Shown: piece after piece, positions 27,689-64,000 of the stretch
Position numbering within the stretch: position 1 is the first letter of the stretch
Layout: each line of letters starts with the position of its first letter
DNA from: Bacteroidales bacterium
GTDB lineage: Bacteria > Bacteroidota > Bacteroidia > Bacteroidales > UBA3663
DNA: 64,000 nt
NCBI GenBank assembly: GCA_045627785.1
Contig: JAZQOF010000036.1
Coordinates: forward strand, 97,630 to 161,629
Reading direction: 5' to 3'
Program-made: the position numbers and the translations under genes
Notes under the pieces: model-generated
What the model was told of the DNA's origin: nothing
What the model saw: only the letters and a program-made list of their open reading frames with translations
Database searches by the model: none

Positions 27689-28462
27689 ATGAAAATCTCA
27701 ATCATTACTTCAACTTATAATAGCGCCTTAACCCTGCGAGATACAATAGAGAGTATTCTAAGTCAGGATTATAAGGATATAGAGTATATCATTGTGGATG
27801 GTTCTTCTACTGATGACACATTATATATTATAAAAGAATATGAGCCTAAGTTCAATGGTAAGATGCGTTGGATTAGCGAACCGGACAAAGGTCTGTATTA
27901 TGCAATGAATAAAGGTATTGCTTTGGCAACGGGAGATTATATCGGAATACTAAACAGTGATGATTTCTATACAAGTACAGATATTATTTCAACTATTGTA
28001 AATACTATAGATAGATATAACGTAGATGCGGTATATGGAGATATTCATTATGTGAATGGCGATGACCTTAAGACTCCTGTAAGATACTACTCATCAAGTT
28101 CGTTTAGTAAATGGAAGATGAGATTCGGATTTATGCCTGCCCATCCATCTTTTTATTGTAAAAGATCTTGCTATGAAAAATACGGTTCTTTCGATACGGA
28201 TTTTAGAATTAGTGCAGATTTCGAACATTTATTACGATTGATTTTTGTCAATAATATTCAGACAAAGTATATACCGAAAGATTTTGTTACAATGAGAACC
28301 GGAGGTGTTTCGACATCTGGATTCTCAAGTCATAAACGAATATTCAAAGACCACATGCGTGCATACAAAAAGAATAATGTATATTCCAATTATTGTTTTG
28401 AATTATGCCGCTATATATGTAAGGTGTGGAGTCTCGCAATATTTAGAATAAAAAAGCAATAA
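27689..28462 (+). CDS. Glycosyltransferase family 2 (WcaE-like)
   Basis: MKISIITSTYN, DGSSTD, SEPDKGLYYAMNKG, LNSDD, PAHP, MRTGGVS. Confidence 0.92.
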   Translation: MKISIITSTYNSALTLRDTIESILSQDYKDIEYIIVDGSSTDDTLYIIKEYEPKFNGKMRWISEPDKGLYYAMNKGIALATGDYIGILNSDDFYTSTDIISTIVNTIDRYNVDAVYGDIHYVNGDDLKTPVRYYSSSSFSKWKMRFGFMPAHPSFYCKRSCYEKYGSFDTDFRISADFEHLLRLIFVNNIQTKYIPKDFVTMRTGGVSTSGFSSHKRIFKDHMRAYKKNNVYSNYCFELCRYICKVWSLAIFRIKKQ

Positions 28463-42693: not shown

Positions 42694-44094
42694 ATGTCGA
42701 TTAATTCAATTCCGTTTCTTATTTGCTTTTTTGTATTTCTGACGATTTACTATAGTCAGCGAAATGCAAGCTCTCAGAATTGGGCTATTGCAATAGGTTC
42801 TTTACTTTTTTATTTACATGCCAATGCTGAAATGTTGCCTGTTTTGGCAATATCTACACTTATCTTTTATTTCATAGGTTTACTTATTGAAAAGAAAAAA
42901 CGATTTGTGGGTCCATATTTGATTTATGGAATAGGTATTGTTATTTTGGGTATATTTAAGTATTTTGACTTCTTTTTTGATAGCTTTAATGGTGTCTATG
43001 AGTATATTGATGAAGATATTGTAGAGATACCACATTTCCATTTGATCTTGGCATTAGGTCTAAGTTTCTATACATTCAGAATGATGTCTTATGCTTTGGA
43101 TGTTTATAATGGAAAGACAAAAGCTTGTCACGATCTTTCCCGTTTTTTTACTTATGTGAGTTTTTTTCCAGCTGTCCTTTCGGGTCCAATAGAGCGCTTT
43201 TCCAATTTTGATTCTCAGTTAGATATTCATCGAAATGTGAACTTTACGCAGATGAGAGTTGGCTTTCAGCAGATTGTTTGGGGTATGTTCAAAAAGATGG
43301 TAATAGCAGATACAGCGGAAATGTCGGTTGAATTGGTATGGAAATCTCCTGAAACGGTTTGGTCACCAATGCTGATTCTTGCTGCTTTTTTGTATAGCAT
43401 TCAGATATATTGCGATTTTTCGGGGTATAGTGATATGGCATTGGGTGTAAGTAAAATGATGGGAATAAACTTGACACCCAATTTCAAATATCCATATTTC
43501 GCTAGGAATATTCAAGAGTTTTGGCGTCGTTGGCATATTTCTTTGACATCTTGGTTTACAGATTATGTCTATATTCCCCTTGGTGGAAACAGATGCTGTA
43601 AAGCTCGAGTTTATTTTAATATCATTGTTGTCTTTGCATTGTCAGGATTATGGCATGGACAAAATATTACATATTTATATTGGGGTGTATATAATGGATT
43701 GTTAATGGTGTTTTTTGCAATTTTTGGAGCAACAAAATATAAAGATACTATTTCAAAAATAACACCGAAATCCATTTCCCAGCTTATTCTGACATTTTTA
43801 TTAGCTTCATTTGGATGGATTTTGTTCCGTTCTCCATCAATCGACGCGTTCTTCTTGTATTGTAATGGATTGGTTTCTCCAGAGCAGTGGATGATGGAAC
43901 CTATTAATATATTTGTCCATCAGCCACGTTTATTCATTTCTCTCATCCTGTTATTCTTTTTTGAGTGGAAATACAGAACTGAAGAATTTCCATTCAGCAA
44001 GAAACTCATTAATCCGTTATTCTTAGCCATTTTTTTCTGGTTTGTAATAAGCCAGCGTGGTGGCTCAATCGACTTTATCTATTATAATTTCTGA
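42694..44094 (+). CDS. MBOAT O-acyltransferase (AlgI/DltB-like)
   Basis: FKY, GLSFYTF, FFP...GPIER, DFSGYSDMA, FWRRWHISL, SGLWHG. Confidence 0.93.
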   Translation: MSINSIPFLICFFVFLTIYYSQRNASSQNWAIAIGSLLFYLHANAEMLPVLAISTLIFYFIGLLIEKKKRFVGPYLIYGIGIVILGIFKYFDFFFDSFNGVYEYIDEDIVEIPHFHLILALGLSFYTFRMMSYALDVYNGKTKACHDLSRFFTYVSFFPAVLSGPIERFSNFDSQLDIHRNVNFTQMRVGFQQIVWGMFKKMVIADTAEMSVELVWKSPETVWSPMLILAAFLYSIQIYCDFSGYSDMALGVSKMMGINLTPNFKYPYFARNIQEFWRRWHISLTSWFTDYVYIPLGGNRCCKARVYFNIIVVFALSGLWHGQNITYLYWGVYNGLLMVFFAIFGATKYKDTISKITPKSISQLILTFLLASFGWILFRSPSIDAFFLYCNGLVSPEQWMMEPINIFVHQPRLFISLILLFFFEWKYRTEEFPFSKKLINPLFLAIFFWFVISQRGGSIDFIYYNF

Positions 44095-44098
44095 TTAT

Positions 44099-44962
44099 AT
44101 GAGTTCAATTTCAAAGTACATAATTACTTTTTTGCTTTCGTTGCTTGTATTGTGTCTTGTTGTCGGAGAAACTCATTATTATATTACATATATAAAGCCG
44201 AATAAGCATTTGTTTGATACTGATAAATCAAAGCATATCTTGTTTTTAGGCGACAGCCAGTTGGAGTGTGGTATTGATGAAGCATATTTTCCCGAAGCTT
44301 TTAACCGATGTAAATCAAGCGACAGCTATTTGTTTTGTTTTGCAAAGCTTAAGGAAATGGTAAAACACAATCCGCAAATAGATACCCTTATTGTGTCTTT
44401 CAGTCATACTTCGATGTATCCAGAAGTCGATAACAGGATGCATACTGAAGGAATGGAAAAGAGGCTTTTGCTCTATTTGCCATATCTTTCGCTTGAAGAT
44501 ATAAAATGGTTTTCTTTTACTGAGATTGGAGAGAATCTTGTAAATTTTTTGTTCCCGAGTTCTCGACCGAAAGCAGAGACACGAGGAGGGTTTAATAGAC
44601 GTCCGTCAACTGAATTTTTCAAAATCCCGACATACATAGAACTTAGCGAAGATACTAAAGAATCGTTGAAGGTAAGTGAATATAAGAACGATTGTGCTAA
44701 GTTTTACTTGAGCAAAATAGAGAATTTCTGCAAGAATAATAATATAAAGCTCATTCTTTTAACGCCTCCAGTTTATAATACTAAATATCGCTCTACCTTT
44801 TGGCAGGAAGAATTAGAGAAAAATTATTCCCACTTGCCACACGTCAATTGTGAGACGATGATTTCAGATAGTCTATTTTATGACTATTCCCATCTGAACG
44901 AAGATGGAGCAAGACAGTTTAGTATTCTATTGCGGAAGTTGGTGAATAATGAAAATGATTAA
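44099..44962 (+). CDS. SGNH-like periplasmic acyl-transfer partner (AlgJ/DltD-like)
   Basis: N-terminal TM anchor from ATG 44099, FLGDSQ, and C-terminal DYSHLN (DxxH); directly after the MBOAT gene. Confidence 0.7.
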   Translation: MSSISKYIITFLLSLLVLCLVVGETHYYITYIKPNKHLFDTDKSKHILFLGDSQLECGIDEAYFPEAFNRCKSSDSYLFCFAKLKEMVKHNPQIDTLIVSFSHTSMYPEVDNRMHTEGMEKRLLLYLPYLSLEDIKWFSFTEIGENLVNFLFPSSRPKAETRGGFNRRPSTEFFKIPTYIELSEDTKESLKVSEYKNDCAKFYLSKIENFCKNNNIKLILLTPPVYNTKYRSTFWQEELEKNYSHLPHVNCETMISDSLFYDYSHLNEDGARQFSILLRKLVNNEND

Positions 44963-56456: not shown

Positions 56457-58234
56457 TGTTTAAAATATATATACGCATTTTATTGACTTCTTTATTGTTA
56501 TTTGTGGCATTACTTGCTTCGTGTAGAGAAGAAGTCATAGAACCAGATACGCCAGTTACCCCGAATCCACCTGTGCCTGTTGTACCAGTAGATACTATTC
56601 CTGATCCATCAGTCCCAGAAGATACGATACCAGAGATTCCTGATATCCCGGATCCTATTAGATATTCGTTTGTGCTTTCTGCAACGGTGGATGAGTATAT
56701 GGTATGGAATGTTGATGATTCACTCTATGTCCATTCTTCCTTGGAAGATCAGGAAATAAATTTCATAATGCATATTGATAGTATCTCGGATGACAGAAAG
56801 AGCGCATGGTTTTGTGAGATTCTTTCATTCGAACCAACAGATGATATGCAGTGGACTATTTCTCGTCCTGCAATTTGTGAAGATTTTAGCATTCAAGATG
56901 GAACAGAAGAATCATTGCATAAGTTTATAGGATTATCAGATATTTGTTATGGTAAATGTCCACAGATAAATTTCTGTAACAATATACATGTCTTGAGATT
57001 AACATTGCCTGATGGTATTGAGACTGTAGAATGTGTTGGAGGATTTGAAACTTTATTATTTTTGCCTATACCATCTTCTGTTAATGATCAAGTATATCTT
57101 GCAATGCCTGATACTTGTGCAGTTCTTCCTAATCTAGTCCTGAAAAAGGGAGATGGACGAGTTGCAAGAAGTAGAAAAATTAAAGAAGATGACTTGAATC
57201 GAGTAATAAAAGCAAGCCTTGTTGATATTTCTTTAGTTAACCATCAAAAGATTTCTGTCGAGGCAGGAACTCCATACAATGCCTTCTTGCAAGGAAACTT
57301 TAGTGGAATAACTTGGCTAGGTGGTAATAAATATGCGATAGTTGATGACAACGATATTGCTGTAGGAGAAGGTTGGTATTTGTTCGATATCGATATTTCA
57401 AAAGACGGAAAAATAACTAATATAGAAAAAAACGAATTCGTAGGTTCTGGTTTGCCAAATCGCGATCTCGAGGGGATTACATATAATCCGACATCAAAGA
57501 GGATGTTGCTTTCAGGAGAAAAGGATAATGTTATTTCGGAACACCGATTGTCTGGAGAAAGAACAGGAAAATTCCTAAATACGACAATGTTCGAAGCAGC
57601 AAACGAAAATGCAGGGTTGGAGGCGTTGACATATAATGATATTACCAAACAATATTGGACTACAACAGAAGCTGGTATGCCTGGGGATGGAGGAATGGCT
57701 CATCCTATGCGCACAAAGAGAAAATCTAACAAATTACGTTTACAATCCTACCAGGCAGATGGAACACTCGGCAATCAGTTTATTTACGAAACGGATGAAT
57801 ACCAGAAAAAAGAATATGGAGACTCTTATTCTTTTGGCGTATCTGCTTTAAGTGCACTTGATGACGGACGTCTTCTAGTATTGGAAAGAGAATGTCAATT
57901 GGCTTTTGTAGAGAATGGGGAAATTGGTTTTTGTTATGAAAAACTTTTTCTGGTAGATCCTACGAGTTATAAAAATGGTGATAAATTATCTAAAAAACTA
58001 TTGCTTGAGTTGTCAACTTCATTAACTGCATCGAAAAAAACAAATAGTATTAAGGGCGAGTTTACAAATTATGAAGGAATGTGTTTAGGACCATATTTAA
58101 GTGAAGATACGCGAATGCTGTTTTTGGTTTCTGATTCCAGGGCAAACCAAAGCATAGCATATTCGCTTGATTCTAAACCGTATTCTTTCCCAGATGTTTT
58201 CCTCCCAATAGTTCTGAAATTCGAAGATGAGTAA
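56456..58234 (+). CDS. Lipoprotein with Pro-rich linker and C-terminal phytase-like (esterase-like) beta-propeller
   Basis: Lipobox LASC, GNFSGITWLG, DLEGITY, NAGLEALT, GVSAL..LDDGRLLVLER, NYEGMCLGP, VSDS. Confidence 0.8.
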   Translation: MFKIYIRILLTSLLLFVALLASCREEVIEPDTPVTPNPPVPVVPVDTIPDPSVPEDTIPEIPDIPDPIRYSFVLSATVDEYMVWNVDDSLYVHSSLEDQEINFIMHIDSISDDRKSAWFCEILSFEPTDDMQWTISRPAICEDFSIQDGTEESLHKFIGLSDICYGKCPQINFCNNIHVLRLTLPDGIETVECVGGFETLLFLPIPSSVNDQVYLAMPDTCAVLPNLVLKKGDGRVARSRKIKEDDLNRVIKASLVDISLVNHQKISVEAGTPYNAFLQGNFSGITWLGGNKYAIVDDNDIAVGEGWYLFDIDISKDGKITNIEKNEFVGSGLPNRDLEGITYNPTSKRMLLSGEKDNVISEHRLSGERTGKFLNTTMFEAANENAGLEALTYNDITKQYWTTTEAGMPGDGGMAHPMRTKRKSNKLRLQSYQADGTLGNQFIYETDEYQKKEYGDSYSFGVSALSALDDGRLLVLERECQLAFVENGEIGFCYEKLFLVDPTSYKNGDKLSKKLLLELSTSLTASKKTNSIKGEFTNYEGMCLGPYLSEDTRMLFLVSDSRANQSIAYSLDSKPYSFPDVFLPIVLKFEDE

Positions 58235-58266
58235 GGACAAGTATTATTTATAGATTATACCACTTT

Positions 58267-60105
58267 TTACAGCGACTGCATATCGTTCAGTCGCTTGTAA
58301 TAGCCGTTCTTGCCGATGAGTTCTTCGTGTGTACCACGTTCGACTATTTGTCCTTCGTGAAGCACACAGATCTCATCGGCATTTTTTATTGTAGAGAGTC
58401 TATGAGCGATGGCGATTGTGGTGCGGGACTTCATGAGACGTTCGAGGGCTTCCTGAACAAGACGTTCGCTTTCTGTATCAAGTGCGGAAGTTGCTTCGTC
58501 AAGGATAAGAATTGGAGGATTCTTCAATATCGCGCGTGCGATTGAGATGCGCTGTCGCTGACCGCCGGAGAGTCGTCCGCCACGATCTCCAATCATTGTA
58601 TCATAGCCATTTTCTGATTCCATAATGAAGTCGTGTGCATTCGCAATTTTTGCAGCAGCAATGACTTCTTCCATCGTCGCGTTGTCCACGCCGAATGTGA
58701 TATTATTGAAGAATGTATCGTTGAAGAGGATTGCCTCCTGATTTACATTGCCGATTTGTGAACGCAGATCGGCAATTTTTATGTCTTTTACATTCTTACC
58801 ATCAATCATGATGGCGCCACTACTAACGTCATGATAGCGTGGAACGAGATCAACAAGAGTTGATTTGCCAGAACCGGACTGACCGACGAGAGCAATTGTT
58901 TTACCTTTTGGTACAGTCAAGTTGATATTCTTTAAAACCTGAATCTCGCTGTTGGCGTATGAGAAGCAAACGTCACGGAACTCAATACCCTCCTGCATTT
59001 CTCCCAATGCAACAGGAGATGCTGGATCTGTGATGTTGTTGTCGGCTTTCAGGATCATGTCAATGCGATCCATAGATGCAAGACCTTGTGGGATATTGTA
59101 GAATGCTTTCGAGAATTCCTTGAGAGGATTGATTACCGAATACAGAATCACAAGGTAGTAGATGAACATTGCCGCATCAATAGGAGAGTTGTCACTTAAG
59201 ATGAGCCAACCTCCGAAAAGGAGTACGATGACAATGATCACTGTGCCCATAAACTCGCTTGTCGGATGTGCAGAACTCTGGCGTATTGCCATTTCATTCA
59301 TTGCCTTCCGGTACACATCGTTTGTATTGGTAAAGCGTTTCAGCATCTTGTTTTCTGCCAGGAAAGCCTTAATAACGCGTAATCCGCCCAACGTCTCATC
59401 AAGTTCTGTCATAATCTGGCCCCATTGATCCTGCACAAATACAGATTGGCGTTTCAACTTACGACCCACTTCGCCCATGACCCATCCCAAAAGAGGAATT
59501 GCGATAAGTACAAAGAGTGTCATCTGCCAACTCAAAAAGAACATAGTGAAGAAACAGACGAAAATAGCAATAGGACTCTTGATCAGCATATCAACCGAAC
59601 TGGTCAATGCAGTCTCAACCACTTGAACATCCGCACTCATTCGTGCTACAATGTCGCCTTTCCGTTCCTCGCTGAAGAATGCAAGTGGTAAATGCAATAC
59701 CTTCTCATATACTTGTATGCGGATGTCTTTTACGATGCCGGTTCTGAAAGGAACCATGATAGCCGAAGATGCAAAGTAGCTGCCAGTCTTTAATAGTGTC
59801 ATTGTGATAAGAGCATTTCCCATAGCAACTAATGTCCACATCTGTCCGTGAGTAGCAATCAGATCACTAACATACCAGTATGCATTGTTGATCAATGCAT
59901 CTTTGTCGAAGTTCGCCCAATCAATTTCCTGATAAGTGTATATTTTGCGGTCAACCTGGAAAAGTATATTGAGTATTGGTACAAGTGCGGCAAAGGAAAA
60001 AACATTGAGCCACTGACTCAAGAAATTCAGCACAACCGACCAAGCCAGATATTTGCGGTATGGCTTGATGTATCTGCCCATCACTTGGAAAAACTGCTTT
60101 ATCAT
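58267..60105 (-). CDS. ABC exporter, fused TMD-NBD (MsbA-like)
   Basis: Walker A GQSGSGKST, LSGGQRQR, ILILDEATSALD, IAHRL; six-TM N-domain. Confidence 0.93.
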   Translation of the reverse strand: MIKQFFQVMGRYIKPYRKYLAWSVVLNFLSQWLNVFSFAALVPILNILFQVDRKIYTYQEIDWANFDKDALINNAYWYVSDLIATHGQMWTLVAMGNALITMTLLKTGSYFASSAIMVPFRTGIVKDIRIQVYEKVLHLPLAFFSEERKGDIVARMSADVQVVETALTSSVDMLIKSPIAIFVCFFTMFFLSWQMTLFVLIAIPLLGWVMGEVGRKLKRQSVFVQDQWGQIMTELDETLGGLRVIKAFLAENKMLKRFTNTNDVYRKAMNEMAIRQSSAHPTSEFMGTVIIVIVLLFGGWLILSDNSPIDAAMFIYYLVILYSVINPLKEFSKAFYNIPQGLASMDRIDMILKADNNITDPASPVALGEMQEGIEFRDVCFSYANSEIQVLKNINLTVPKGKTIALVGQSGSGKSTLVDLVPRYHDVSSGAIMIDGKNVKDIKIADLRSQIGNVNQEAILFNDTFFNNITFGVDNATMEEVIAAAKIANAHDFIMESENGYDTMIGDRGGRLSGGQRQRISIARAILKNPPILILDEATSALDTESERLVQEALERLMKSRTTIAIAHRLSTIKNADEICVLHEGQIVERGTHEELIGKNGYYKRLNDMQSL

Positions 60106-60108
60106 ATA

Positions 60109-61038
60109 TTATAATGTAATATCAAATTTTTTCAATCTTGCATTTATCATGTCTTCTGGCACTACGTGCTTGATCACATCTGCCACAATGTTCAACATTC
60201 TTTCTCGCATGTAGTCTTTTCTTATGACCAGCGACACTGTGCGGAAGAATTTCGGAGACATAATCATTCTGACATTTTGTTTTTGGTTTTCACTCAATGC
60301 ATTTTCAAATAGTTGAGGAATCAGTGTATAGCCACCGTTCATATCCACCAAAGATATAAGTGTGGAGATGCCTCCTGTCTCAAACATGGAAGAATGCATT
60401 GTTTCACGGTGTATCACCTCGCTAAGTTGTTGGTATCGGTCGTGAAATTCTTTTAAGGTCCATATCTCGCCATCTTGCAAGTCTTGTGGCGTCACACGTT
60501 CTCTGTTATGTAACATGTGAGACGGTGAAACATATAGCAAGAAACGTTCAGTGAAGAGCTCGATCTCCAACAGGTTGCTGTCTTGCACATCACTCGATGC
60601 CAGTAGCGCCATGTCGAGCTCAGCTTTTTGTAGTTTCTCGATTACTGAAACCGCATCAGCTTCGAAAATATGTGTTACGATATGTGGATACATAGTTCGA
60701 GCCTGCTTCGCAAAACTTGGATATAGAGCGGGAGCTAACGATGGTATCATTCCGATTCTCAATTCGCCTTTGTCTCCATCTTTTTCGTTTTGCACGAGTT
60801 CCCGAAGCATCTCAGAGTTGTGCAAAATGACATTTGCCTGAGAGATGATACGTCGCCCGAGGGTTGTCGGTTCTATCGGGTGTTTTGAACGGTCGAAGAT
60901 AATGACATCGATTTCCTGTTCCAACTTGTTTATAGTAGTGCTCAAAGTTGATTGTGTTACGCCACATGCAGTGGCGGCATTGACGAAATGTCGATATTTA
61001 TCAACTGCTACTATGTACTCTAATTGTTGGAATGTCAT
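60109..61038 (-). CDS. LysR-family regulator, OxyR-like but lacking the redox cysteines
   Basis: MTFQQLEYIVAVDKYRHF..AA..CGVTQSTLS..I.KLE HTH typical of Bacteroidetes OxyR. The usual GHC.R.Q....C segment reads FHDRYQQLSEVI. Confidence 0.85.
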   Translation of the reverse strand: MTFQQLEYIVAVDKYRHFVNAATACGVTQSTLSTTINKLEQEIDVIIFDRSKHPIEPTTLGRRIISQANVILHNSEMLRELVQNEKDGDKGELRIGMIPSLAPALYPSFAKQARTMYPHIVTHIFEADAVSVIEKLQKAELDMALLASSDVQDSNLLEIELFTERFLLYVSPSHMLHNRERVTPQDLQDGEIWTLKEFHDRYQQLSEVIHRETMHSSMFETGGISTLISLVDMNGGYTLIPQLFENALSENQKQNVRMIMSPKFFRTVSLVIRKDYMRERMLNIVADVIKHVVPEDMINARLKKFDITL

Positions 61039-61054
61039 GCCTCAATCTAACATT

Positions 61055-61091
61055 ATTGATTTTTATCAATGCAAAGATAGATAAAATCTGT
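61055..61091. promoter_or_regulatory. Candidate operator between the LysR gene and nrdD
   Basis: Palindrome ATTGAT-TTTT-ATCAAT (61055-61070) plus ATAG-N7-CTGT (61077-61091). Overlaps a minus-strand -7 box TATCTTTG (61072-61079). Confidence 0.55.
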
Positions 61092-61122
61092 TTGCTTTGT
61101 TCAAATATCTTCGTTAAATTTG
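61091..61122 (+). promoter_or_regulatory. Bacteroidetes sigmaA promoter of nrdD
   Basis: TTTG at 61091-61094, 20-nt spacer, TAAATTTG at 61115-61122. Confidence 0.75.
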
Positions 61123-61200
61123 CGACCGATTCCTCGAAAATGGAGGAAAATCAGTTTTTTGTCATATAAAATCGAAATAAACTAATAACACAATAAGAAC

Positions 61201-63405
61201 ATGATTATAAAAGTTATCAAACGAGATGGCCGTACGGTTGATTTCAACTTCAGCAAGATTGAAGACGCAATCCGTAAGGCAATGAATGCCACTGAAAGTG
61301 GTATCGATGCAATTCTGGCAGCAACTATTGCCGATAAAATTGCAAAGGAAGGTGATCCTTTGATGGGAGTCGAAGCTATTCAGGATGCTGTCGAGAACGA
61401 GCTCATGAAGGCAAATCAGGAAGTTGCTCGTAAGTATATCTCTTATCGTAATGCAAGAAGCATTGCACGTAAGGCTAAGACACGCGAAATCTTTGAGAGC
61501 ATCATCGGCGCAAAGAATAATGATATCACACGCGAGAATGCAAATATGAATGCCGACACACCAGCCGGTATGATGATGAAGTTCGCAAGCGAGAGCACAA
61601 AGCCTTTCGTAGATGATTATCTTCTCGACGATGAGGTCAAGCAGGCAGTAAAACGTGGTTATATTCACATTCATGACAAGGATTACTATCCAACAAAGTC
61701 ATTGACTTGTGTTCAGCACCCACTCAACACAATTCTTCAGCACGGTCTTAAGGCTGCCCATGCCGAAAGCCGTCCAGCAAAGCGTATTGAAACAGCAAGT
61801 GTTCAGGCTTGTATCTCTCTCGAAACAGCACAGAATGAAATGCATGGTGGACAGGCTATCCCTGCTCTTGATTTCTATTTCGCTCCTTATGTGCGTTTGA
61901 CTTATCTTGAAGAACTCCGTCGTTTGGAGGAATATGAAGGAACAACATTCCCAGAACTCTATAATGAGACAATCAAAGACTATATCAACACACCACTCGG
62001 TGAATTGAAGGGTCAGGATCGTGTACGTCAGCAGGCAATCAATCGTACTGTAGGTCGTGTACATCAGGCAATGGAAGCATTCATCCACAATATGAATACA
62101 ATCCATTCACGAGGTGGTAATCAGGTTGTATTCTCTTCTGTGAACTATGGTACAGATACTTCTGCAGAAGGTCGTTGCGTAATGCGTGAATTGCTTCACT
62201 CTACATACGAAGGTGTAGGTAACCATTCGACTGCAATTTTCCCAATCCAGATCTGGAAGAAGAAGCGTGGTGTTAACTTCCTCCCAGGTGATCCTAACTA
62301 CGATCTCTATCAGCTCGCATGTAAGGTTTCAGCACGTCGTTTCTTCCCTAACTTCGTTAACCTTGACGCTACATTCAACTATCATGAGAAGTGGGATGCT
62401 AACGATCCTAACCGTTTCAATTACGAGGTGGCAACAATGGGTTGCCGTACACGTGTGTTTGAAAACCGTTTCGGTCAGAAGACTTCTATTGGTCGCGGAA
62501 ATCTTTCTTTCACAACAATAAATATTGTGGCTCTTGCTATTGAGTCGATGTCTGAACCAAATCAGGAAAAACGTATCGAAGTGTTCATGCTTCGTCTTAA
62601 TGAGATGTGTGAACTCGTTGCAAAGCAGTTGCATCAGCGCTACGAATTCCAGAAGACCGCCCTCGCAAAGCAGTTCCCATTGGTAATGAGTTGTTTGTGG
62701 ACTGGTGCTGACAAGCTTGGACCAAACGATCGAGTTGAGTCTGTTATCAATCAAGGTACACTCGGTATCGGATTCATCGGTCTTGCTGAATGTCTTATTG
62801 CTTTGACAGGCAAGCATCATGGAGAAAGTGATGAGAGCCAGAAACTCGGCCTTAAGATTATCAGCTTCATGAAGAAGAAGGCAGATGAGTTCTCTGACCG
62901 TTATCAGCACAACTATTCTGTTCTTGCAACTCCTGCCGAAGGACTCTCAGGCCGTTTCACTCGCATCGATAAGAAGCGTTATGGTGTAATTCCAGGTGTA
63001 ACAGACAAGGAGTATTATACTAATTCTAACCATGTGCCTGTTTACTATAAGTGCAGCATCCGTCATAAGGCAGAGGTTGAGGCTCCATATCATGATCTTA
63101 CTCGTGGTGGACATATTTTCTATGTAGAGCTCGATGGCGATGCAACTCACAATCCGGATGCTATCTTCAAGGTTGTTGAGCTTATGGACGAATTGAACAT
63201 CGGTTATTGTTCAGTTAATCACAACCGAAACCGTTGTATGGATTGCGGTCACGAAGATGCAACAGAAGATCTCAAGGCTTGTCCTGAGTGCGGTAGCCTT
63301 CATATCGACCGTTTGCAGCGCATTACAGGTTACCTCGTAGGAACAACAGATCGTTGGAATTCAGGTAAGCTTGCCGAACTCAAAGACAGAGTAACACATT
63401 CGTAA
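61201..63405 (+). CDS. nrdD: Anaerobic (class III) ribonucleoside-triphosphate reductase
   Basis: ATP cone VIKRDG, HIHD, GGQ, MGCRT, YYTNS, Zn motif CMDC...CPEC, glycyl-radical motif RITGYL. Confidence 0.96.
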   Translation: MIIKVIKRDGRTVDFNFSKIEDAIRKAMNATESGIDAILAATIADKIAKEGDPLMGVEAIQDAVENELMKANQEVARKYISYRNARSIARKAKTREIFESIIGAKNNDITRENANMNADTPAGMMMKFASESTKPFVDDYLLDDEVKQAVKRGYIHIHDKDYYPTKSLTCVQHPLNTILQHGLKAAHAESRPAKRIETASVQACISLETAQNEMHGGQAIPALDFYFAPYVRLTYLEELRRLEEYEGTTFPELYNETIKDYINTPLGELKGQDRVRQQAINRTVGRVHQAMEAFIHNMNTIHSRGGNQVVFSSVNYGTDTSAEGRCVMRELLHSTYEGVGNHSTAIFPIQIWKKKRGVNFLPGDPNYDLYQLACKVSARRFFPNFVNLDATFNYHEKWDANDPNRFNYEVATMGCRTRVFENRFGQKTSIGRGNLSFTTINIVALAIESMSEPNQEKRIEVFMLRLNEMCELVAKQLHQRYEFQKTALAKQFPLVMSCLWTGADKLGPNDRVESVINQGTLGIGFIGLAECLIALTGKHHGESDESQKLGLKIISFMKKKADEFSDRYQHNYSVLATPAEGLSGRFTRIDKKRYGVIPGVTDKEYYTNSNHVPVYYKCSIRHKAEVEAPYHDLTRGGHIFYVELDGDATHNPDAIFKVVELMDELNIGYCSVNHNRNRCMDCGHEDATEDLKACPECGSLHIDRLQRITGYLVGTTDRWNSGKLAELKDRVTHS

Positions 63406-63430
63406 ACTATTATCTATTAAGATACTTGTT

Positions 63431-63476
63431 GCATAGCCGGTTTGTCATAAGATAAACCGGCTATGCTTGTTTATTT
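63431..63476 (+). terminator. Intrinsic terminator after nrdD
   Basis: GCATAGCCGGTTTGTC-ATAA-GATAAACCGGCTATGC stem followed by TTGTTTATTT. Confidence 0.9.
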
Positions 63477-63517
63477 ACTTTTTTGTTGCAAACGGCACGT
63501 TTCTCGATTATTATTTA

Positions 63518-63525
63518 TATCTTTG
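63518..63525 (+). promoter_or_regulatory. -7 promoter box for ftsY
   Basis: TATCTTTG followed by CA, 22 nt before the ATG; no clear -33 TTTG at normal spacing. Confidence 0.5.
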
Positions 63526-63547
63526 CACAAAAATAATCAAAACGAAT

Positions 63548-64000
63548 ATGGGATTTTTTGATTTTTTCAAGAAGAAAGAGAAAGAAACATTAGATAACGG
63601 TCTCAACAAGACAAAAGAGGGTATTTTTTCAAAGATTGCACATGCTGTTGCAGGTCGTAGCTCAATCGACGAAGAAGTACTCGACAATCTTGAAGAGATC
63701 CTTGTGACAAGTGACGTAGGTGTTGAGACAACACTCCGAATCATTGACAGAGTTCAGGAGCGTGTCAAGAAAGATAAATATGTAGGTACTGACGAACTCA
63801 ACGAATTGCTTCGCGAAGAGATAACCAACCTTCTGGTGGAGAATCAACGAGAGGAACTCGATGGTTTCAATGTGCGAGACGGTATCAAACGTCCGTATGT
63901 GATTCTGGTAGTAGGCGTAAACGGTGTAGGCAAGACTACCACAATCGGAAAACTCGCTTATCAGTTCAAGAAAGCTGGCAATAAGGTTGTGCTTGGTGCT
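63548..64000 (+). CDS. ftsY: Signal recognition particle receptor FtsY (3'-truncated by window edge)
   Basis: Not in the ORF track because it has no stop. ATG 63548 reads MGFFDFFKKKEKETLD.GL.KTKE...LEEILVTSDVGVETT...VGVNGVGKTTTIGKLA. Confidence 0.95.
   Translation, partial: MGFFDFFKKKEKETLDNGLNKTKEGIFSKIAHAVAGRSSIDEEVLDNLEEILVTSDVGVETTLRIIDRVQERVKKDKYVGTDELNELLREEITNLLVENQREELDGFNVRDGIKRPYVILVVGVNGVGKTTTIGKLAYQFKKAGNKVVLGA

Follow-up and report, generated by a model that had tools for sequence, protein, structure and literature searches.

An OxyR-derived LysR-type regulator without redox cysteines, divergent from the anaerobic ribonucleotide reductase gene in a family of Bacteroidales

Described systems and the locus under study

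Among thiol-based peroxide sensors, OxyR is the textbook example; its DNA boxes follow the consensus ATAG-N7-CTAT derived from Escherichia coli. The gene nrdD, encoding class III (anaerobic) ribonucleotide reductase (RNR), is known to be regulated by FNR in E. coli and by NrdR in many bacteria. The present study concerns a 64,000-nt stretch of DNA from a Bacteroidales bacterium (assembly GCA_045627785.1, contig JAZQOF010000036.1, positions 97,630 to 161,629; hereafter the window), in which the gene of a LysR-type regulator, related to OxyR and devoid of both redox cysteines, lies divergently from nrdD. The genome of the window, G000, comprises 3.15 Mb in 50 contigs and is rated 90% complete; its family, as sampled, is a single genus represented by 39 genomes. 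The lineage lives in the gut, and the organism has been recorded solely through metagenome assemblies. The reading proposed here, to which a probability of roughly 0.65 is assigned, is that this protein is an OxyR-derived, non-thiol regulator activating nrdD and repressing itself.

The regulator has the same domain order and fold as the structurally solved OxyRs of Pseudomonas aeruginosa (4x6g), Porphyromonas gingivalis (3ho7/3uki), and Corynebacterium glutamicum (6g1d), the same pocket His and universally conserved Arg, and the same type of two-box operator, as predicted, at a divergent promoter overlapping its own. Unlike these proteins, it has neither the peroxidatic nor the resolving Cys (Asp200 and Ile209 instead), Gly197 and Arg201 beside the site are changed to Phe and Tyr, respectively, its partner is nrdD and not a peroxide-defence gene, and its operator is unique in the genome. 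With FNR and NrdR, the regulator would share the transcriptional control of a class III RNR gene from a promoter site, as proposed here, while FNR (CRP/FNR family) and NrdR (an ATP-cone zinc-ribbon repressor) belong to families unrelated to LysR-type regulators.

Two departures from the canonical OxyR scheme are close enough to be compared. The engineered C199D OxyR of P. aeruginosa (4x6g, 4xws) has Asp at the peroxidatic position in common with the regulator, yet it is a laboratory mutant of a two-Cys sensor with Cys208 kept and is 28-30% identical to the regulator, whereas here the Asp occurs naturally, is fixed in 30 of 33 species, and comes with further changes in the pocket. The one-cysteine OxyR of Deinococcus radiodurans senses H2O2 through its single Cys, according to an excerpt of the report (PMC2225504); both proteins depart from the two-Cys scheme, and the regulator here has no Cys at all in its regulatory domain. 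In the open-access literature searched, neither a LysR/OxyR-type regulator of nrdD nor an OxyR without both cysteines is reported.

The locus consists of the following genes:

60109..61038, minus strand: gene of the OxyR-derived LysR-type regulator, 309 aa, HTH_1 and LysR_substrate domains, single Cys at residue 25
61201..63405, plus strand: nrdD, class III anaerobic ribonucleoside-triphosphate reductase with an N-terminal ATP-cone, 734 aa
58267..60105, minus strand: MsbA-like ATP-binding cassette (ABC) exporter, fused permease and ATPase, 612 aa

The regulator and nrdD are separated by a divergent intergenic stretch of 162 nt (61039-61200). On the other side, the regulator's stop codon TAA (60109-60111) is followed by 3 nt (TAT) and then by the ATG of the exporter (60103-60105), so close that the two genes are probably co-transcribed. 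Both distances agree with those given in the original prediction, which had been made from the letters of the window alone. To judge from its sequence, the 734-aa partner is certainly NrdD: it scores 977 bits on NF005497 (cut-off, 764) and matches Pfam PF03477 (ATP-cone) and PF13597 (NRDD). RITGY and a CxxC...CxxC arrangement are visible in its translation, which we take to be the C-terminal glycyl-radical and zinc-ribbon motifs.

An OxyR without its redox cysteines

The regulator belongs to the LysR-type family, with PF00126 matching residues 3-62 and PF03466 residues 87-284, both over the gathering score, and within this family it is closest to OxyR. Its best NCBIfam model is OxyR NF008361 with 162.5 bits, the next being the unrelated GltC and CynR with about 121-122 bits. 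This score falls under the curated equivalog cut-off of 329 bits; two-Cys relatives that adjoin peroxide-defence genes score only 177-228 bits on the same model, and therefore the cut-off is uninformative in the phylum Bacteroidota. By HMMER, the eleven best sequence matches in the PDB are all OxyR, headed by P. aeruginosa OxyR 4x6g (E 1.3e-32), with the P. gingivalis regulatory domain 3ho7 at E 1.6e-22. An AlphaFold2 model built from a 36-row alignment reached a predicted local distance difference test score (pLDDT) of 89.2, and its top Foldseek matches are OxyR structures (4x6g, E 8e-26). Thus the likeness to OxyR noted at first from the letters holds at the level of family model, PDB sequence, and fold.

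In spite of this likeness, the redox center is gone. The only Cys of the regulator is residue 25 within the helix-turn-helix (HTH), as had been read originally, and the translation and alignments bear out the loss of both redox cysteines. The segment that would carry them in OxyR is the following:

60412..60462, minus strand: remodelled former redox segment, residues 193-209, WTLKEFHDRYQQLSEVI, delimited by HMMER alignments to solved OxyR structures

The peptide originally quoted for the peroxidatic segment is the right one, while its lower bound, 60421, was 9 nt off. In the HMMER alignment to P. gingivalis OxyR, FHDRYQQLSEVIH stands over GHCFRDQLVRFCQ; Asp200 (codon 60439-60441) occupies the position of the peroxidatic Cys199 and Ile209 (60412-60414) that of the resolving Cys208.

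The same pattern is found among orthologues. The Cys-less protein is present in 35 of the 39 family genomes, at 54-76% identity, and the loci of 33 of these 35 genomes were examined, those of G047 and G052 being left out. At the Cys199 position, the 33 nrdD-linked proteins have Asp in 30 cases, and Gly (L018), Glu (L019), and Asn (L050) once each. The Cys208 position is taken by Thr, Ile, Val, Ala, or Leu, and by Cys in none of the 33; both cysteines are kept in all 65 other OxyR-like proteins compared. Besides Cys25, no cysteine is conserved in the Cys-less clade. The input of the regulator cannot be cysteine oxidation.

Other parts of the pocket are retained or rebuilt. Arg266 and His199 of the OxyR pocket are kept in 33/33 and Ser100 in 31/33, and Thr129 is not conserved, its position being taken by Ala, Pro, Thr, Ser, or Val. 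Near-invariant residues specific to the clade have appeared at the old redox site, namely, Phe198 (Gly in relatives), Tyr202 (Arg in relatives), Leu205, and Phe265. For comparison, in the excerpted survey of 67 OxyRs (PMC6294878), the peroxidatic Cys and the pocket Arg (E. coli Arg266) are universally conserved, and Thr100 is replaced by Ser in 3%. The three proteins with Gly, Glu, or Asn at position 200 form one subclade, in which the operator described below is retained with a few changes, the downstream ABC exporter is missing, and the intergenic regions are the shortest (113-211 nt). One of its members, L050, carries Cys at pocket position 100.

Loss of both residues that define OxyR chemistry, together with a divergence faster than that of NrdD (54-76% identity across the genus versus 81-91%), might be taken as a sign that the protein is a decaying, non-functional remnant of OxyR. 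This is hardly credible, however. The open reading frame (ORF) is intact at 308-310 aa in all of the 33 loci, the gene is present throughout most of the family as mentioned above, and the DNA-binding domain, the most conserved part of the protein, is nearly invariant, with a mean column identity of 0.92 within the clade; the operator is almost invariant as well. Furthermore, omega (the ratio of nonsynonymous to synonymous substitution rates) of the regulatory domain is 0.03-0.30 in the seven pairs with computable synonymous divergence, synonymous sites being saturated for most pairs, and therefore the regulatory domain is maintained by selection, not decaying.

Paralogy and placement within the OxyR clade

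The original prediction was that of a repurposed OxyR paralogue, and it had called for a phylogeny of LysR proteins and a search for a canonical oxyR elsewhere; clade placement, synteny, and a coexisting canonical OxyR all speak in its favour. Canonical two-Cys OxyR, with AQCLRDSAFSFC, is encoded in 5 of the 39 family genomes (G009, G042, G047, G052, and G053), all of which also carry the Cys-less gene. Because the two coexist in these five genomes, they are true paralogues. Seven family genomes combine a completeness of 90% or more with a contamination of 5% or less, and of these only G042 has the canonical gene. It was not found in G000 (90% complete), whose other LysR-type matches score at most 87 bits on the OxyR model.

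Outside the family, an order-wide sample of 401 genomes gave 101 matches at E of at most 1e-35, from which 61 loci were analysed (the 40 best, 20 lower-ranked ones including second copies, and L027). Both cysteines are kept in 60 of them and both are lost only in L074 of genome G385, which is flanked by TrkH, GAF-domain, and CobW-like genes (G385:C5) and has no nrdD nearby. A maximum-likelihood (ML) tree of 102 rows was rooted on three other LysR proteins of G000, after a duplicate (L028) and a fragment (L030) had been dropped. In this tree the 33 nrdD-linked proteins form one clade, with a support of 100 in the Shimodaira-Hasegawa-like approximate likelihood ratio test (SH-aLRT), nested in two-Cys proteins through enclosing clades of 38 (SH-aLRT 96), 63 (100), and 77 (97) rows. 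The nearest neighbors are L074 (87) and then L054, L055, L056, and L061 (96), and the 63-row clade also includes the family's own canonical OxyR. In a second tree with database representatives, the clade falls within a 25-row group (97) that mixes two-Cys, one-Cys, and Cys-less lineages. The protein is thus inside the OxyR clade in both trees.

A search of 1.84 billion representatives clustered at 50% identity gave only one that is more than 50% identical to the regulator (P0108, 58%), the next being 48%, and therefore the Cys-less clade is narrow. It is nevertheless well populated: among the best 120 of 827 metagenome matches (E of at most 1e-10), no identity falls under 54%. Of the 150 nearest representatives, 119 keep the Cys pair, 9 the first only, and 22 lack the first, although some of these 31 exceptions may be effects of alignment or truncation; Asp at the Cys199 position occurs only in P0108. 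Judging from these sequences, cysteine loss is recurrent in this OxyR subclade, but the nrdD-linked Asp form makes up a single lineage. P0124, P0126, P0127, P0128, P0141, P0157, and L074 are other OxyR-derived lineages in which one or both Cys are lost, with residues other than Asp.

Linkage to nrdD and the surroundings of relatives

The synteny, whose conservation had also been put forward as a check, is complete: every one of the 33 loci examined has the regulator and nrdD in divergent orientation. This linkage is confined to the family as far as sampled. In the other families, nrdD is absent from the fetched flanks of all 61 OxyR loci, and none of 17 nrdD loci has a LysR-like gene within 1.5 kb; of 151 genomes sampled from the order, 19 were found to contain nrdD itself. 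The idea that nrdD is an older target of OxyR was dropped, no consistent box pairs being found upstream of the 17 nrdD loci in other families. In G005, a single contig carries two oppositely oriented copies of the entire regulator-nrdD-ABC locus (C36:8105-9031 and 43534-44460; L016 and L028), which is either an inverted duplication or an assembly artefact in a genome that is 6% contaminated.

Two-Cys relatives keep the company expected of OxyR. By Pfam matches of flanking ORFs, AhpC/TSA peroxiredoxin genes adjoin L054, L055, L058, and L066 (the last also with an AhpF-like reductase), thioredoxin genes L055, L056, L058, L060, L071, L032, and L033, Dps/ferritin-like genes L057, L094, L101, and L088, and a rubrerythrin gene L033. 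Of these, the P. gingivalis-like L094, L101, and L088 fit the earlier remark that OxyR of Bacteroides is divergent from dps.

A conserved, presumed OxyR-type operator between putative back-to-back promoters

The 33 intergenic regions vary in length from 113 to 350 nt, and only a 44-nt block can be aligned among them, the flanks being dissimilar. Bacteroidetes promoters have the consensus TTTG at -33 and TAnnTTTG at -7, from which the promoters below were assigned. The elements of the intergenic region are as follows:

61052..61095, no strand: 44-nt block, near-invariant in 33 orthologous intergenic regions, presumed operator and core promoter elements
61056..61070, no strand: box A, TTGATTTTTATCAAT, inside the dyad ATTGAT-N4-ATCAAT (61055-61070)
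61077..61091, no strand: box B, ATAGATAAAATCTGT, OxyR-type ATAG-N7-CTAT, starting 21 nt after box A
61091..61122, plus strand: putative nrdD promoter, -33 TTTG at 61091-61094 and -7 TAAATTTG at 61115-61122
61105-61102 and 61080-61073, minus strand: putative promoter of the regulator itself, -33 TTTG and -7 TATCTTTG, respectively, the latter overlapping box B

The arrangement has the features of a tandem OxyR operator, since box B matches ATAG-N7-CTAT and box A lies 21 nt upstream. It also has dyads such as are typical of LysR-type sites (T-N11-A type) at divergent promoters: ATTGAT-N4-ATCAAT and AGAT-N7-ATCT are kept across the 33 loci, and binding to them is predicted. Similar boxes precede canonical oxyR genes of the order. 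Upstream of the two-Cys genes L063, L064, L071, L073, and L075 there is ATAGATAAAATCTAT, equivalent to box B, and distal boxes ending in ATCAAT or ATCGAT, comparable to box A, are found upstream of the two-Cys relatives L076 and L078. In L063, L064, L071, L073, L075, and L076, two boxes are located 21-22 nt apart just upstream of the start, in the order ACAGAT...TCTAT and then ATAGATAAAATCTAT at those oxyR genes. These boxes amount to an empirical OxyR operator for this order.

The position of the block relative to nrdD is strict. Measured from the ATAG of box B, the distance to the nrdD -7 box is 38 nt in 29 of the 33 loci, the others having 37-40 nt; between the -7 box and the ATG of nrdD, by contrast, it varies from 42 to 219 nt. 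Box B abuts the nrdD -33 element and, at the same time, covers the regulator's own -7 element. Searched with a position weight matrix (PWM) of the 44-nt block, the 3.15-Mb genome yields one site, and a PWM of 25 nt around box B likewise matches the nrdD site only. Because the operator is unique in the genome, the regulator is likely to be local rather than global.

It could be supposed that the regulator controls its own operon only and that its adjacency to nrdD is an inherited gene order without regulatory meaning. Indeed, the exporter that starts right behind the regulator is present in 28 of the 33 loci, and part of the conserved block coincides with the putative promoter of the regulator itself. 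This explanation is nonetheless improbable: the exporter is missing in five loci (L018, L019, L022, L025, and L050), whereas nrdD is missing in none, and the block is retained in all five; furthermore, the block keeps a fixed distance from the nrdD -7 box, whereas its distance from the regulator ATG varies about four-fold (25-116 nt), and box B directly adjoins the -33 element on the nrdD side.

Possible targets in the genome

In G000, nrdD is the only ribonucleotide reductase gene found: neither a class I/II RNR (PF02867) nor NrdR (TIGR00244) was found in this 90% complete genome, a B. thetaiotaomicron control also giving no match to the latter model. The genome carries peroxiredoxin and rubrerythrin genes. 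At most one mismatch being allowed, no box was found within 400 nt upstream of three AhpC/TSA-family genes (L134-L136) or of rubrerythrin L137, one of two rubrerythrin genes. Of paired ATAG-N7-CTAT boxes with at most one mismatch each and a distance of 21-22 nt, the genome has a single instance, where 1.2 are expected, and this one does not lie at a stress gene. The regulator itself has no peroxide-defence gene as a neighbor, but nrdD and the ABC exporter.

These data bear on the supposition that the protein is still a general oxidative-stress regulator, working by non-disulfide chemistry, with nrdD as one of many targets. The failure to find a canonical OxyR in G000 despite its peroxiredoxin and rubrerythrin genes could be explained in this way, and several orthologues bear a name to this effect in JGI annotation: P0078, P0088, and P0092, all Cys-less, are labelled 'LysR family hydrogen peroxide-inducible transcriptional activator', a label that is probably wrong to judge from their residues. 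A general role is quite improbable, however, as no Cys is conserved outside the HTH, the boxes are neither enriched nor located at the stress genes mentioned above, and the protein coexists with canonical OxyR in five genomes.

Further members of a regulon were sought with shorter PWMs and rejected, the matches being weak and mostly containing the general promoter motif TATCTTTG, and double boxes not being enriched. Two single sites may be recorded. At G000:C17:69461, GCAAAGATATAGAAATATTCTAT is a single box resembling box B with a promoter motif, located in an intergenic region upstream of a 344-aa ORF on the minus strand. At position 28236 of the window (G000:C36:125865), GATTGATTTTTGTCAA is the second-best match in the genome to the PWM of the box-A dyad, with 19.8 of a maximum of 23.4.

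Proposed mechanism and its alternatives

In the mechanism proposed, the regulator would be a lineage-specific offshoot of OxyR that has lost the thiol switch (Cys199 to Asp; Cys208 to a variable aliphatic residue or Thr) and has retained the OxyR fold, the pocket His and Arg, and OxyR-type DNA recognition. A LysR-type tetramer would bind the two OxyR-type boxes at 61056-61070 and 61077-61091 between the back-to-back promoters, in a geometry analogous to that of OxyR at loci of the oxyR-oxyS type. Activation of nrdD is proposed because box B abuts its -33 element, and repression of the regulator's own operon, including the ABC exporter, because the site lies over both the -7 element and the start region of that operon. 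Since nrdD is the only RNR gene detected in this genome and no NrdR was found, this would amount to a dedicated transcriptional control of deoxyribonucleoside triphosphate (dNTP) synthesis in an anaerobe. Asp200 would either hold the protein in an activated-like state or form part of a new effector site; because Ser100, Phe198, His199, Asp200, Tyr202, Phe265, and Arg266 of the pocket are conserved, a non-redox effector site is slightly more likely than one fixed state.

The fixed state deserves a closer look. Here the protein would be locked in one conformation without sensing anything, the carboxylate of Asp imitating an oxidised Cys, and would act as a constitutive activator and autorepressor. 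Such a state would suit the Asp found in 30 of 33 orthologues. The boxes are contiguous at 21 nt from start to start, an arrangement bound by activated OxyR, and an RNR gene that is essential and the only one of its kind may have to be expressed steadily. In addition, the excerpted study of OxyR (PMC6294878) describes that the engineered C199D protein of P. aeruginosa shows activation-linked local unfolding and that the Asp carboxylate hydrogen-bonds H2O2. On the other hand, the conserved, clade-specific Phe198 and Tyr202, together with Ser100 and Phe265, fit an effector site equally well, and one subclade has Gly, Glu, or Asn instead of Asp. A locked protein is possible but, on balance, doubtful.

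More tentative still is a combined idea, in which a natural Cys-to-Asp mimic of the oxidised cysteine either made OxyR permanently active or turned it into a reversible, non-covalent sensor of H2O2 or another ligand via a Ser-His-Asp-Tyr-Arg pocket, and the OxyR-operator module then moved to the only RNR gene of a strict anaerobe. If so, the protein would take the place of NrdR, which this lineage lacks, in regulating dNTP synthesis.

Several points weigh against the proposal that an OxyR-derived, non-thiol regulator activates nrdD and represses itself. The left half of box A is a poor match to ATAG-N7-CTAT. The promoter elements were assigned from the general Bacteroidetes consensus, and regulation at this locus is predicted from sequence; moreover, because part of the block is promoter sequence, some of its conservation needs no regulator. 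Because the subclade of L018, L019, and L050 keeps the operator without Asp, Asp200 is not indispensable and the role of the pocket in sensing is uncertain. The AlphaFold2 model does not separate an oxidised-like from a reduced-like state, its Foldseek template modelling (TM) score being 0.84 to both 3ho7 and 3uki/3t22. A canonical oxyR, NrdR, and a second RNR count as 'not found' rather than absent in G000 at a completeness of 90%. Finally, the approximately unbiased (AU) test does not reject a sister relationship between the clade and the family's own canonical OxyR (p 0.109); the clade may have arisen by duplication within the family, or from an older paralogy or transfer, the AU test being compatible with both.

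Should the proposal hold, the locus would be a case of natural rewiring, in which fold, DNA site, and promoter geometry survive while the sensing chemistry has gone and the only RNR gene has become the target, and it would illustrate how a regulator of a stress regulon can become a dedicated housekeeping regulator. It would also suggest a way in which Bacteroidales lacking NrdR may control class III RNR, of interest to specialists of OxyR and RNR alike. The case is not a one-off, as the same OxyR subclade has lost cysteines several times. For annotation it signals a risk, automatic pipelines already naming some of the Cys-less proteins as peroxide-inducible activators. The natural Asp variant, for its part, may help in the design of OxyR-based probes and in the study of the activated conformation.

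Other features of the locus

A hairpin with a T-run at 61130-61148, flagged by a terminator scan, was considered as an attenuator in the nrdD leader and rejected, since a stricter terminator search found an attenuator-like feature in none of 32 distinct orthologous nrdD leaders (mean of shuffled sequences, 0.5), with fold z-scores mostly weak, and no Rfam family matches within 58000-64000. Contigs from four metatranscriptome runs include stretches that resemble parts of nrdD, of the regulator gene, and of the exporter gene at 90-99%, none of which spans 60915-61095; such contigs show no starts, strand, or level, and the libraries may contain DNA, so they say nothing firm about transcription.

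The exporter scores 508 bits on TIGR02203, under the cut-off of 602. Directly 3' of nrdD there is one further feature:

63431..63466, plus strand: strong terminator-like hairpin with a 16-bp stem and a T-run

The gene nrdG does not follow nrdD; it is located on another contig (G000:C47:122811-123242, L114), between the neighboring genes of a DegT-type aminotransferase and a GH10 protein.

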